This document shows positions 9,866 to 20,119 of a DNA stretch of 22,525 nucleotides, piece after piece. Below the pieces are notes generated by a model that was not told where the DNA came from, made no database searches, and saw nothing but the letters and a program-made list of their open reading frames with translations. Position 1 is the first letter of the stretch; every line of letters begins with the position of its first letter. The DNA lies in assembly GCA_964447495.1 (NCBI GenBank), contig CAYUTF010000055.1:1-22525 (forward strand). The letters run 5' to 3'. The DNA comes from an uncultured archaeon (GTDB taxonomy: Archaea > Asgardarchaeota > Lokiarchaeia > Sigyniarchaeales > SOKP01). A program made the translations under genes and the position numbers.

Positions 9866-10093
9866 ATGACAGAATATCAATTAGATATCTTGGGAAAAGT
9901 ATGTCCCTATTGCCTTTTAGCGGTTAGAAATGAAATTAAGAAACTCTCTACAGGTGATCTATTAGTAGTAATAACTGATCATCCTCCTGCAGCAACGGAT
10001 ACTATTCCTCATGATATGAAAAAAAAAGGTCATAATGTGGTAACAAAAAAATTGGAACCAGGAATGTGGGAAATAAGAATTACAATGAAATAG
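9866..10093 (+). CDS. tusA: TusA/SirA/YedF-family sulfur/selenium carrier protein
   Basis: LDILGKVCPYC (CPxx motif), GDLLVVITDHPPA, WEIRI; 75 aa; GAGGT upstream. Confidence 0.9.
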   Translation: MTEYQLDILGKVCPYCLLAVRNEIKKLSTGDLLVVITDHPPAATDTIPHDMKKKGHNVVTKKLEPGMWEIRITMK

Positions 10094-10125
10094 AATCTGA
10101 TCAAAAAGTCTTCACTAATATCATT

Positions 10126-11310
10126 ATGAGAAATCTAAATTTTCTATTTTGTAATAATATTGATAAAGAAAGATTGGAATGGATTTGTAATATAATTGGT
10201 AATCATTATCTTAAATCGAAATCTTCTAAATATAAATATAAAATCAAAATCTTTTTGACTGGAGAGAGTCTTTATAGTTTAATAGATGGCAGGATGCATG
10301 AATTATGGATTAAAATTTTAACTTTTCATTATGTAAAAATTTACATTGATCACTCTGAGCTAGTTCTATTCGGTGTATCGGTTGATTTCTTAAAAGAAGC
10401 GTATCCAAATAATTTTTTTTTGATATCTGAAAATAATCAGAATAGGATAAGTTTTTGGGAATACTTTATAGATACAATATATAGCAAAAATTTTACTTTA
10501 AAATTTGGCTTTTTACAAAATTCTGGCCCATACATGGAAAGAACATCTTTATATGCTCTGCGATTAATAAATGCGGCAATAAATTATAGACTAAATCCCG
10601 AATATTATGGTTATCTTGATGGAGTACATTTAGGTCATAAGGGACAGAATCCTTCTGAATTCGAAAATATTGCAAGTATGCTAATTGAGACCAAGAGTCG
10701 AGCAAAGCAGAAAAATTTAAATTTCTCAATGTTATCTTGTTTGCGTTGCGGAACTGCCAGAGGGTATATAAGATCTCAACCTACCAATGATCTTTATGAG
10801 TCTGATGATACAATACCATCCTATTATTTTGGTAATCTCAATAAAATTATCGATCAATTTGAATATAATTTTCCTATTCTCTCATCTAATTCCGCAATAA
10901 TCACCCAAGATACACAAGAAAATCATTCAAACCCGGGATTAATTATCTTCATTACTCATAGTCCTTATAGTTCTGAATGGAGTTTTGGTGGTGTTTCATT
11001 TGCAGTGGCAAGTGCTTCTCACAATATCCCTACTCAAGTCATTTTCATTGAAAGTGGTGTTTATTGCATGGTAGGAGAACATGCTATTAGTGAAAATGAC
11101 AAAATTTTTAATTTGCAAGAAATATTGGAAGCATCTGTTGATATGGAGTTTCTTAACTTTTATGCTTATGCGCCTTCTTTGAAAATAAGGGATATATTAC
11201 CCTCAAATGATTTAAAGAGTGTGTCACTAATAGGAAATGAAGAATTAACTAATATTGTATTAAAAAATTCTAGAAAAGGTTTATACCATAAAAGAATTAT
11301 ATTTTTTTAA
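10126..11310 (+). CDS. Multidomain DsrE/DsrF/DsrH-like (TusD/TusC/TusB-like) sulfur-relay fusion protein
   Basis: Middle domain SGPY..YLDGVH..SCLRCGTARG is DsrE/TusD-like; C-terminal ITHSPY..VIFIESGVY..PSLKIRD..IIFF is DsrF/TusC-like; N-terminal IFLTGESLYSL..IYIDHSELVLFGV is a third, divergent copy. ATG at 10126 preferred over 10066, which overlaps tusA. Confidence 0.8.
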   Translation: MRNLNFLFCNNIDKERLEWICNIIGNHYLKSKSSKYKYKIKIFLTGESLYSLIDGRMHELWIKILTFHYVKIYIDHSELVLFGVSVDFLKEAYPNNFFLISENNQNRISFWEYFIDTIYSKNFTLKFGFLQNSGPYMERTSLYALRLINAAINYRLNPEYYGYLDGVHLGHKGQNPSEFENIASMLIETKSRAKQKNLNFSMLSCLRCGTARGYIRSQPTNDLYESDDTIPSYYFGNLNKIIDQFEYNFPILSSNSAIITQDTQENHSNPGLIIFITHSPYSSEWSFGGVSFAVASASHNIPTQVIFIESGVYCMVGEHAISENDKIFNLQEILEASVDMEFLNFYAYAPSLKIRDILPSNDLKSVSLIGNEELTNIVLKNSRKGLYHKRIIFF

Positions 11311-11347: not shown

Positions 11348-11581
11348 ATGCTCAAAACTGATATAGCGGATTATACTAATCTTACTTGTACAAATTTAAT
11401 GATTAAACTAAAAATTCTACTAAAAAAGCTACCAAACGGAGATAAATTAAAATTCTATGCAACTAGAGAGCAATTCGATAACATTAAAAAACCATTTGCC
11501 AAGAATCCGTATAGATTTCAAGGAGAACAAGTTGGAGATAACAGATATTATATTTCGATATATAAAAATCTAAAAGGTTGA
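11348..11581 (+). CDS. Second TusA/SirA-like protein with atypical C-T motif
   Basis: 77 aa; ADYTNLTCTNLMIKLK..LPNGDKLKFYAT..YYISIYK aligns by eye with the TusA fold but has CT instead of CP. Confidence 0.7.
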   Translation: MLKTDIADYTNLTCTNLMIKLKILLKKLPNGDKLKFYATREQFDNIKKPFAKNPYRFQGEQVGDNRYYISIYKNLKG

Positions 11582-11589
11582 TAATAAAC

Positions 11590-11946
11590 ATGTCAAAAAT
11601 TAATAACCTTCTTACAATTCATTTACTTTTTACACATAATCTTCGAAGGTATATTTTATTTTCATTTAGTTCCTCTAATTATGAATATCTTTATGTTTAT
11701 CATTTGAAAAAGCAGATTCGGTCTCTTTTTTATGGAGAAAATTTCCAAGGATTAATTGCATTATTATTAAAAGATACCAAAATTGAGTGTATTGAATGTT
11801 CTTTGGCGTCAAAAATAATGGGGGGTATTTCTTATGATCGCGATCAACAAGTAATTAATAATATGTCACTTGAAGAGTGTAATACGATATTAGCAAAACT
11901 CAAAGTTGAACTAAATAGAGCATTTGATATTGTTATCCCATTCTAA
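11590..11946 (+). CDS. Hypothetical protein with CxxC (ECIEC) in the selenium cluster
   Basis: Open frame between the tusA-like gene and selD, co-oriented; ATG at 11590 (track uses TTG at 11578). No family recognised. Confidence 0.65.
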   Translation: MSKINNLLTIHLLFTHNLRRYILFSFSSSNYEYLYVYHLKKQIRSLFYGENFQGLIALLLKDTKIECIECSLASKIMGGISYDRDQQVINNMSLEECNTILAKLKVELNRAFDIVIPF

Positions 11947-11977: not shown

Positions 11978-13006
11978 ATGGAAAAAAATAGTGAATATAG
12001 ACTTACTTCACAGGTTAAAATACACGGATGAAGTTGTAAACTTGGACCAACAGATTTAAGCAATCTATTAATAAAAACAGGATTATCAGGTGATATCGAA
12101 GATGCTGCTGTATTACCAATTCCGAAAAGTGATTTGGTCTTAGTTAAGAATATTGATATCATGACTCCACTTGTCGATGAACCTTCAATCATGGGAGAAA
12201 TTGCTGCATGTAATGTTACAAATGACATTTTTGCCTTAAATGTACCAGAGATTTCCGGTATGCTTGTGTTCTTAGCGATTCAAACAAGTACCCCTATTGA
12301 AATTACCGAAGGGATATTAAAAGGAATTAAACACTTTATAGAGAAAAAAGTAAACTCCCAAATTGTTGGTGGTCATACTATTTACTCGGGATGGCCTCTT
12401 ATAGGTGGTGAGGCTTCTGGATTCGTTCATAAAGATGCTATTATCCCTAAAAGTGGTGTAAAAAAAAGAGATAAACTAATATTGACGAAGCCTATTGGTT
12501 TGCAAGCTGTCATGGCAGCATATAGACTTTTAAAAGATTTCCCAGAAATGTTAGAACAATATTCTCAGCAAGAACTTAATAAGGCTATTGATTTAGCGAT
12601 AAGGATAATGACTACTTCAAATCAGCAAGTTGTCAAGATTATTCATTCATATGAAGATTTTTCATTTATTCATGCGATGTCAGATGTTACTGGGTTTGGA
12701 TTAGCGGGACATCTTAAAGAAATGCTTCAGCATTCAAATTTATCTGCCTTGATTACCAAAACACCCTCAATCAAACTTTCGAAAACGCTCTCTGAAGATT
12801 TAGGCTATGCATTTGATGATTGTACTTGCCATGAAACAGCTGGAGGTATGTTAATATCTGTTGATCCCGTTCAAATTGAAGATTTTTCCGATGTACTTTC
12901 TCGAAATGGTGTTAAAAATTGGATCATAGGAGAAATCGATCAATTTAAACCTGAAATAGTTCGTGTATCAAAAGATGTTCAAAATGTTGAAGTATCAGAA
13001 TTTTAG
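11978..13006 (+). CDS. selD: Selenophosphate synthetase (selenide, water dikinase), selenocysteine-containing, 342 aa, U18
   Basis: ATG at 11978 after GAGGTGA (11969-11975) gives MEKNSEYRLTSQVKIHG-TGA-SCKLGP, in frame with the track ORF at 12134; TGA 12029-12031 is at the catalytic U/C-x-x-K position. EDAAV, NDIFA, GGHT, LILTKPIG, DVTGFGLAGHL, ETAGGML motifs. Confidence 0.96.
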
Positions 13007-13077
13007 AGATGTCTATGAAATAAGCTTAAACACAGCTGTGGTGGCTTATGGAGAAATTCACCCGTATGGTGGCGTCT
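13007..13077 (+). promoter_or_regulatory. Eukaryote-type SECIS element in the selD 3' UTR
   Basis: ATGA 13015-13018 opposite GA 13051-13052 (kink-turn core); helix ATAAGC 13020-13025/GCTTAT 13044-13049; unpaired AAA 13028-13030; apical mini-stem CAC-agct-GTG 13031-13040; basal helix AGATGTC 13007-13013/GGCGTCT 13071-13077. Confidence 0.85.
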
Positions 13078-13083
13078 ATAATA

Positions 13084-13875
13084 TTAACCCTTCTTTAATC
13101 TGCCATTAAGATTTAATATGATTTTTTTTGCTTTATTAATTGCATTTTCAACTAACTCAAGTCCATTTTCTACATTAAAACAAGTGATTGAGAGTTCTAC
13201 TTCCACAGAAAGGCCAATTCTAGGATGTGTTTTAATCCAAAGTTGTGGAAACTCTTTTTCTAGTTGAGTCATATAAGGAGCAATCTGAGATTCACCTATA
13301 CCTGTAAAAATAAACCCCCTTTCAATAAATTCTCCTTTATTTTCCTTTAAAATAGACGTTATAACATTTCTAAACATTGATTTCATCTCAGCGGGTACTC
13401 CCGGTAATATAAAAATAGTGGTGCTTTTTTCCGATAACTTAACTCCGGGAGCAGTCCCAACCGTATTTGGTAAAGGAATCGCTCCTTGAGGAAGATGCGC
13501 CATTTTTTCTCTCTCTTTCGTCATACCTTCAAGCTTTAAAATCCCTCTTCTATTTGCGCTTTCATAAGCTTTCTTTATAGAATTATATGCATGTTGATTT
13601 AGCTCAATATTTCTATTCAATCCTTTTGCAATTCCTTGCAAAGTCATATCATCAAAGGTTGGTCCAAGACCGCCAGTAATAATAATAATATCGGGTACAC
13701 GTGTTAATATCTCTCTTAAAGTGGCGGATATCTCATTTAGATTGTCTCCAATAGTCGTTATTCGCTTTAAGCGATGTCCATATTTTGCTATTCTCTTTGC
13801 CATCCAATTTGAATTCGTATCTTGCGTCTTTCCAATTAAAATTTCATTTCCAATCGTCAAAATCTCAACATTCAT
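13084..13875 (-). CDS. cinA: CinA-like / molybdopterin-binding (MoCF_biosynth, COG1058) domain protein
   Basis: EILTIGNEILIGKTQDTNS, IGDN, ITGGLGPTFDDMT, NTVGTAPG, LPGVPAEM, GIGESQIA; no C-terminal PncC domain. AGGAGG upstream. Confidence 0.88.
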   Translation of the reverse strand: MNVEILTIGNEILIGKTQDTNSNWMAKRIAKYGHRLKRITTIGDNLNEISATLREILTRVPDIIIITGGLGPTFDDMTLQGIAKGLNRNIELNQHAYNSIKKAYESANRRGILKLEGMTKEREKMAHLPQGAIPLPNTVGTAPGVKLSEKSTTIFILPGVPAEMKSMFRNVITSILKENKGEFIERGFIFTGIGESQIAPYMTQLEKEFPQLWIKTHPRIGLSVEVELSITCFNVENGLELVENAINKAKKIILNLNGRLKKG

Positions 13876-20026: not shown

Positions 20027-20119
20027 GGGGAATTGGCGTAGTGGTAGCGTGACGGGCTCCAGATCCTTTAAGCATGAGGCGTTACCCGGAGATCGGGGGT
20101 TCAATTCCCTCATTCCCCA
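20027..20119 (+). tRNA. trnW: tRNA-Trp(CCA) with 21-nt intron at 37/38 (intron 20063-20083); CCA end not encoded
   Basis: Acceptor GGGGAAT/ATTCCCC+A; D arm GCGT-AGTGGTA-GCGT; anticodon CCA 20059-20061; T arm GGGGG-TTCAATT-CCCTC; relaxed bulge-helix-bulge at the junctions. Confidence 0.92.

Follow-up and report, generated by a model that had tools for sequence, protein, structure and literature searches.

The selD gene of this archaeal genome contains an in-frame UGA, and the question raised by the locus is what would let the ribosome read this codon as selenocysteine (Sec). The whole stretch of DNA analysed, called the window below, is 22,525 nt long and holds the single selD of the genome. 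The encoded SelD protein scored 183.8 bits against the NCBIfam model TIGR00476 selD (cut-off 125). A TGA was present at the Sec site in 95 of the 96 selD copies that reach the aligned position, the exception being a misaligned copy. An earlier note on this DNA had proposed a eukaryote-like SECIS directly 3' of the selD stop and about 980 nt from the UGA. The element does begin at 13007, the base after the TAG, and 976 nt were counted between the UGA codon and this position. Since the convergent cinA-like gene ends at 13084, positions 13007–13083 (77 nt) make up the entire gap between the two genes. A hairpin of the bacterial type immediately after the UGA was not found (-5.2 kcal/mol, z = +0.52). 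The results below make it very probable, on comparative sequence evidence, that the element is the SECIS of the selD mRNA, with the fold of a three-way junction, and that it lets the ribosome read UGA codon 18 as Sec. The coordinates of all features are collected in Table 1.

Table 1. Features of the selD locus, of the predicted SECIS element and of related sites in the genome and in other selD loci. Partner positions refer to the window.
Feature	Position	Strand	Remark
ORF, 414 aa, just 5' of selD	10066-11310	+	C-terminal part weakly TusC/DsrF-like
Two small ORFs without family, between the 414-aa ORF and selD	11348-11946	+
selD (selenophosphate synthetase), selenoprotein, 342 aa	11978-13006	+	translation with TGA = U
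Sec codon 18, in-frame UGA	12029-12031	+	motif HG-U-SCKLG; translation
selD stop TAG	13004-13006	+	sequence
Helix I, 5' strand AGAUG	13007-13011	+	pairs with 13073-13077; first base directly after stop
Kink-turn C-stem, 5' strand UC	13012-13013	+	C13013 = position -1b; partners A13054 and G13053
Kink-turn bulge UAU, 3 nt	13014-13016	+	its A and U belong to AUGA
ATGA	13015-13018	+	sequence
5' GA of the predicted tandem sheared G.A/A.G core	13017-13018	+	invariant, 86/86
Helix II, 5' strand AUAAGC	13020-13025	+	pairs with 13044-13049
Unpaired AAA, AAR-like motif	13028-13030	+	invariant, 86/86
Apical ministem CAC/GUG with 4-nt loop AGCU	13031-13040	+	13031-33 with 13038-40
Helix II, 3' strand GCUUAU	13044-13049	+	alignment
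3' GA of core	13051-13052	+	A in 86/86; G in 82/86, A in other 4
Kink-turn C-stem, 3' strand GA	13053-13054	+	G13053 = position -1n
Third arm (hairpin III) UCACC / loop CGUAU / GGUGG	13058-13072	+	13058-62 with 13068-72
Helix I, 3' strand CGUCU	13073-13077	+	alignment and RNAalifold
cinA-like gene, convergent to selD	ends 13084	-
tRNA gene	20027-20119	+	54.4 bits; 25-nt insertion in anticodon arm region
Type I SECIS-like sites of FrhD/VhuD-like genes	C5:23353, C25:14610, C51:4564, C126:2550	-, -, +, -	motifs xKUGYG and GU / SU
Type I selD loci	L026, L031, L032, L045, L050, L054, L055, L057, L069		element downstream of selD

Related loci were collected by scanning species-representative genomes with the SelD protein, which gave 72 loci at 59–82% protein identity. 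All 72 belong to Asgard-labelled MAGs (mostly Promethearchaeota) or to entries named 'uncultured archaeon', so that the support for the taxonomy claimed in the earlier note holds. Searching these loci and the window with tblastn produced 103 selD-like stretches: 71 orthologs with the motif HG*SCK (window included), 24 complete upstream tandem paralogs with the motif FG*NCK, and 8 copies that were excluded, of which 7 were truncated at the locus edge or incomplete in some other way and 1 was misaligned at the Sec site. An element of about 71 nt was found directly 3' of the stop in 61 of the 70 other orthologs (62/71 with the window), and the same element lies 3' of all 24 complete upstream paralogs. 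The window, the 61 orthologous copies and the 24 paralogous copies were combined in alignment A1 of 86 rows. The remaining 9 of the 71 orthologs carry a type I form, in which ATGA and GA flank a 9-bp stem capped by an 11-nt A-rich loop. In these nine elements the loop ends in G, and the core is followed by a small hairpin with an AGCA or UGCRA loop. Tandem selD pairs are present in many relatives, with TGA at the Sec site of both genes (L003, L004, L009, L011-L014, L017, L022, L027 and others). The upstream paralog of such a pair has the motif FG-U-NCK and is about 60% identical, and each of the tandem genes has its own predicted three-armed SECIS.

As judged from alignment A1, the whole element is a three-way junction composed of helix I, a kink-turn arm and a third arm. 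Helix I (columns 9-13:80-84) is 93% paired with double changes in 3 of its 5 pairs, and it abuts the stop codon in 78 of the 86 rows. This position counts against a SECIS, in that a ribosome terminating there has to open part of the structure. Helix II (columns 22-27:49-54) reaches 99.4% pairing, with double changes in each of its 6 pairs. Beyond the unpaired AAA, the ministem column pairs also vary in concert (35:43 is CG in 70 rows and UA in 13; 34:44 is AU in 76 and GC in 6). The third arm (columns 64-68:75-79) is 94.7% paired with double changes in 5/5 pairs; its pair 65:78 is CG in 72 rows and UA in 14, and is never unpaired. The loop of this arm contains a G (G13064, column 70) that is conserved in 86/86 rows, usually within YUGC. 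In total 11 alignment positions are invariant, namely the UGA of the 5' core, the AAA, the A of the 3' GA, the third-arm loop G and three bases of helix I. The earlier note had located the core, the ATAAGC/GCTTAT helix, the AAA and the CAC/GTG ministem, and all of these lie where it had put them; its range of 13007–13077 also fits the outer helix AGAUG/CGUCU. It says nothing of a closing helix, of the 2-bp C-stem or of the third arm.

The base of the kink-turn arm deserves separate description. In the nomenclature of kink-turns the first pair of the C-stem next to the bulge is -1b:-1n, and kink-turns with a 3-nt bulge are bound by L7Ae. The corresponding pair 13013:13053 (column 15:59) is CG in 60 rows, UA in 22 and UG in 4, with 0/86 unpaired, and has the third-highest mutual information among all column pairs. 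Within the bulge, column 18 is U in 86/86 rows and column 17 is A in 78/86. Given that a Watson-Crick C-stem, a 3-nt bulge and tandem G.A/A.G pairs together define a canonical kink-turn, the sequence and covariation of the core fit a canonical 3-nt-bulge kink-turn with presumably sheared G.A geometry.

The modelled structure accounts for the alignment well. Standard pairs fill 93.0% of 1942 cells, compared with 29–49% when the 3' partners were slid by 1–3 columns and 34% in an added control where all 3' partners were placed one column off. Changes on both sides were seen in 20 of 23 pairs (232 cells), and 0 of 500 shuffles reached any of the five measures used. The window itself has a standard pair at 22/22 modelled positions. 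RNAalifold, with no structure supplied, predicted helix I, helix II, the ministem and hairpin III, and in a blind mutual-information scan of all column pairs the modelled pairs ranked at the top. The covariation counts are inflated by relatedness of the rows: the U-A form of 13013:13053 mostly occurs together with the U-A form of a ministem pair, so the number of independent events is smaller than the number of cells. Pairing of 13012-13 with 13071-72, as drawn in the single-sequence minimum free energy (MFE) fold, was considered and rejected in favour of the C-stem with the third arm, since 14 cells are unpaired at 15:78 and none there shows a double change. In the mutual-information scan of A1 the third-arm loop did not covary with any other unpaired part of the element. 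Thus the check proposed in the earlier note, covariation across selD orthologs, has come out in favour of its element, with core and stems kept 3' of orthologous selD genes.

A covariance model trained on the other 85 sequences found one match in the window (13004-13090, 77.3 bits, E 1e-16), the next-best window match scoring 13.4 bits. The full model, with the window included, gave one match in the 3.8-Mb genome. Among 150 other genomes sampled from the phylum, scanned with strict filters and a sequence-rich model, the element was found in 22 of 25 of the window's own family and in 0 of 125 elsewhere, which indicates that the exact form is a family-level variant. Thermodynamic stability does not single out the element, the MFE of -17.6 kcal/mol corresponding to z = -0.17 with 81 of 200 shuffles folding at least as well. 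Rfam produced no match at its gathering score, and none at E <= 10 over 12900-13200, eukaryotic SECIS included. The description of the element as eukaryote-like in the earlier note thus stands for its layout, while membership in the eukaryotic family as defined by the Rfam model does not. A transcript ending before 13052, which that note had raised as an objection to its own proposal, is weakly opposed by a metatranscriptome contig of 151 nt that is identical to the window and spans 12958-13108; this contig comes from one run at depth 2, carries no strand information and may stem from DNA carry-over. Three other RNA runs contained pieces of the selD coding part, and gaps in the cover of these runs are not informative.

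A SECIS of eukaryote-like type II layout behind Asgard selD is of a kind already published. The text of Mariotti 2016 (PMC4989117) describes a distinct SECIS 3' of Loki-like SPS, with AUGA, a main stem of reduced length, an additional apical stem and GA, which no eukaryotic, archaeal or bacterial covariance model matched significantly. The window element has each of these parts and, like this SPS lokiSECIS, lies just 3' of the stop with AUGA/GA, an A-rich motif, a short main stem and an apical stem. There is no demonstrable difference between the two as the SPS lokiSECIS is described in PMC4989117; that text is silent on a closing helix, C-stem or third arm, the word 'junction' being absent from it and 'hairpin' occurring only in a reference title, though its figure may draw these features. 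According to the text of Huang, Xiao and Zhang 2024 (PMC11227280), which covers >400 Asgard genomes, type II eSECIS-like elements are the main selD form, tandem or multiple selD occurs in 51 organisms, and rare GAA_A-like structures 3' of the eSECIS-like ones are probably non-functional. The assignment in the earlier note to the type II eukaryotic layout, not the GAA/A type of Methanococcales, fits the descriptions in the text of both papers, and its statement that eukaryote-like SECIS elements are established in Lokiarchaeota is borne out by the same passages of Mariotti 2016 and Huang 2024.

The model of Huang 2024 (PMC11227280), as its text gives it, comprises core, upper stem and apex only, and its authors see no strong nucleotide conservation in either the internal loop or the lower stem. 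In the window its core pattern 5'-GA ... [G/A]A-3' is found at 13017-18 and 13051-52 and is conserved in 86/86 rows. The upper stem, 13019-13025 with 13044-13050, is at the lower limit of the 7–15 bp with at most 2 mismatches allowed by the model, having 7 positions and the one mismatch A13019.G13050. The apex, for which the model asks a ministem of 2–8 bp, a bulge of 4–12 nt and a loop of 2–6 nt, is represented by 3 bp, UUAAA on the 5' side with GUG on the 3' side, and the 4-nt AGCU. The difference from the model as described in that text is in the lower part of the window element, where the conserved fold is a three-way junction and one loop G is invariant. Neither 'hairpin' nor 'three-way' occurs in the main text of Huang 2024 (PMC11227280), and a 2026 review (PMC13188914) contains neither 'hairpin' nor 'lower stem'. 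Literature searches for a SECIS three-way junction, for an Asgard SECIS kink-turn and for 'lokiSECIS' gave nothing on a third arm.

Helix II of eukaryotic SECIS elements is about 12–14 bp long. That of the window element has 6–7 bp and is short, as the earlier note had remarked. With the eukaryotic type II SECIS (Rfam SECIS_1, RF00031) the element shares the location in a 3' UTR, the AUGA...GA non-Watson-Crick core, the unpaired A's, the ministem and the distant UGA; it differs in that the eukaryotic helix II is longer and in that the eukaryotic element has an internal loop where the window has the 2-bp C-stem and the third arm. The gathering threshold of RF00031 was not reached. Eukaryotic elements are read by SBP2, whereas only L7Ae and eL30 are encoded here. 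The GAA_A SECIS of Methanococcales resembles it in its 3' UTR location and in belonging to an archaeal host that has aSelB, and the third arm of the window element is G+C-rich and preceded by GAA (13053-13055). However, the main arm of the window element has AUGA/GA, G13053 and A13054 are paired, and no 3' A stands unpaired next to the third arm, so that the asymmetric GAA/A loop of the euryarchaeal form with three G-C pairs above it is not present. With the canonical kink-turn (Kt-7, box C/D type; a ligand of L7Ae) it has in common the 3-nt bulge, the tandem G.A/A.G and a covarying Watson-Crick -1b:-1n pair in a C-stem 5' of the bulge. The likeness is one of sequence and covariation, from which sheared pairs would be expected, and the C-stem of the window extends for only 2 bp before the junction.

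The genome encodes the machinery that Sec insertion would need. The tRNA-Sec scored 57.7 bits, above the cut-off, SepSecS adjoins it, and aSelB with an aSelB_III domain is 4 kb away. These three genes form a loose cluster within about 6.6 kb (C19:35500-47500, L216), and ORFs of 226 aa, 296 aa and 465 aa between or beside them have no family or a zinc ribbon only; an Asgard-only hypothetical protein is often found near Sec genes according to the text of Huang 2024 (PMC11227280). A search of the genome gave no SBP2-like protein, and L7Ae and eL30 were its only proteins of the L7Ae fold. The absence of SBP2 matches what is already published in the text of Huang 2024 (PMC11227280).

Other UGA-containing genes of the genome also have SECIS-like structures behind them. 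A loose SECIS pattern gave 3335 matches in the genome, which is uninformative in such A+T-rich DNA, and a strict scan for type I lokiSECIS was used instead. It returned 13 sites of which 6 were convincing, and for 5 of these 6 an ORF containing in-frame TGA ends no more than 18 nt away. Four of the five ORFs are FrhD/VhuD-like with two TGA codons each (Table 1), and in the case of C5 the open frame overlaps the type I site by 13 nt. The fifth is an unassigned ORF of 158 aa at C1 about 137777-138253 (-), equal to L217:178-654 (-), which has an adjacent in-frame TGA pair in the motif GC-U-U-EK, ends 14 nt before the type I SECIS-like element at C1:137762 (-) and has no Pfam match at E <= 1; it may represent an unassigned selenoprotein family. 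For the sixth convincing element, C76:11478(+), no upstream ORF with an in-frame TGA was found within 400 nt.

The type I elements bear on whether the third arm is peculiar to selD. In all 6 type I elements of the genome a small hairpin stands one base 3' of the GA/AA, and the strand that comes next is complementary to the bases preceding ATGA; the type I sites of the four FrhD/VhuD-like genes show a small 3' hairpin with a closing helix. A pool of 31 type I elements was made up of 16 from metagenomes, the 6 of this genome and the 9 type I elements of selD loci. The metagenome part consists of those 16, out of at least 119 pattern matches, in which 8 or all 9 of the helix II pairs form; two of the 16 look random and were kept. 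In 27 of the 31, a hairpin with 4 bp or more starts no further than 6 nt from the core (with GC in the loop in 23), compared with 39/99 (22 with GC) among the matches listed that lacked helix II and 270/620 (25 with GC) for shuffled flanks. A descriptor requiring both the hairpin and the closing helix fitted 16/31 type I elements versus 7/98 and 31/620 in the controls. An MFE-based test for a three-way junction, applied to the 22 candidates other than the selD type I elements, was positive for 12/22 versus 11/98 and 23/220 controls; a stricter version that required the lone -1b:-1n pair passed 1/22, and was judged too strict and relaxed. These counts are suggestive of a third arm that is apparently common to type I elements and not specific to selD.

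Other explanations of the conserved structure have to be considered. It might have no role in recoding and serve at the 3' end of the selD transcript, either to terminate or stabilise it or to keep it apart from the convergent cinA-like transcript. The fact that it fills the 77-nt gap between convergent genes, with helix I beginning right after the stop, would suit such a role, but no terminator-like site was found in 12900-13300 by the criteria for bacterial intrinsic terminators, and invariant unpaired bases (UGA, AAA, A13052 and G13064) would be unexpected in a hairpin serving mere stability. Moreover, the same element stands behind the upstream selD paralog, where the next gene is co-directional and is another selD, not cinA, and the same core occurs 3' of other UGA-containing genes in the genome. 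We consider a 3'-end structure of this kind very unlikely. A further idea is that the minus strand is the structured one, the element then being the 3' UTR of the cinA-like gene, whose stop is 7 nt from 13077 and which, to judge from shared 3' flanks, seemingly remains the convergent neighbour in many relatives. Strand can be decided from the wobble pairs. There are 65 G.U cells and 14 A.C cells in the alignment, so the pairs work on the plus strand only and the structured RNA is the plus strand; in addition, the 24 paralog copies are not beside cinA. A minus-strand structure is almost certainly to be dismissed.

A reading closer to the structure itself is that the kink-turn serves L7Ae-dependent regulation of selD, or belongs to a box C/D-like small RNA, and has nothing to do with Sec insertion. 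The core is that of a canonical 3-nt-bulge kink-turn and the genome encodes L7Ae, which would suit this reading. On the other hand, no C/D-box family overlapped 13007-13077 at E <= 10, the invariant AAA would be superfluous in a regulatory kink-turn, and in this genome the element is found only behind genes with an in-frame UGA. There is very little chance, in our opinion, that regulation or a small RNA is the sole purpose of the core.

Returning to the element as the SECIS of selD, the sequence would be compatible with the following mechanism. A kink-turn-binding protein would recognise the core. Recalling that L7Ae and eL30 are the only encoded proteins of that fold and that there is no SBP2, this reader may be L7Ae, eL30 or another factor. 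The mRNA would then loop so that the bound complex delivers aSelB-GTP-Sec-tRNA(Sec) to a ribosome that has paused at the UGA, with the AAA motif and the third-arm loop (G13064) as possible further contact points. As the core is that of a textbook kink-turn, L7Ae is a testable candidate for the reader in organisms without SBP2. In agreement with the recoding proposed in the earlier note, the element confirms the UGA as a Sec codon and the genome as that of a Sec-using Asgard archaeon.

What the third arm contributes is more speculative. That the Asgard SECIS, unlike the simple kink-turn hairpin of the published models, is a three-way junction in which the third arm is a second and required recognition module is a tentative idea which we think less probable than its opposite. 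The arm could be the docking site of an archaeal SECIS-binding factor or of aSelB; alternatively it could pack on helix II and the AAA and so fix the kinked shape. As the arm is G+C-rich and preceded by GAA it could also be the counterpart of the euryarchaeal SECIS hairpin and, if so, the Asgard element would be a physical composite of two SECIS types. The combination of a third arm and a kink-turn on a three-way junction may be undescribed: the texts of PMC4989117, PMC11227280 and PMC13188914 do not describe it, though figures may draw the third arm. This has a practical side, in that reporter or binding constructs designed from the published core-only models would omit the third arm and, if the arm is required, minimal constructs without it are expected to fail. 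A result that counts against the SECIS reading as a whole is that a lokiarchaeal vhuU SECIS placed in Methanococcus maripaludis, a heterologous host, gave 21.1 mU/mg and was called non-functional in the text of PMC11881835; the predicted energy of -6.9 kcal/mol given for the construct suggests to us a minimal hairpin.

Some minor observations were made elsewhere in the window. The ORF of 414 aa just 5' of selD matched the sulfur-relay family TusC/DsrF with E 4e-5 and 23.5 bits, under the cut-off of 94. The region 5' of selD could be a neighbourhood for sulfur or selenium handling. Further downstream, the 25-nt insertion in the tRNA gene (Table 1) is as expected of an archaeal tRNA intron.
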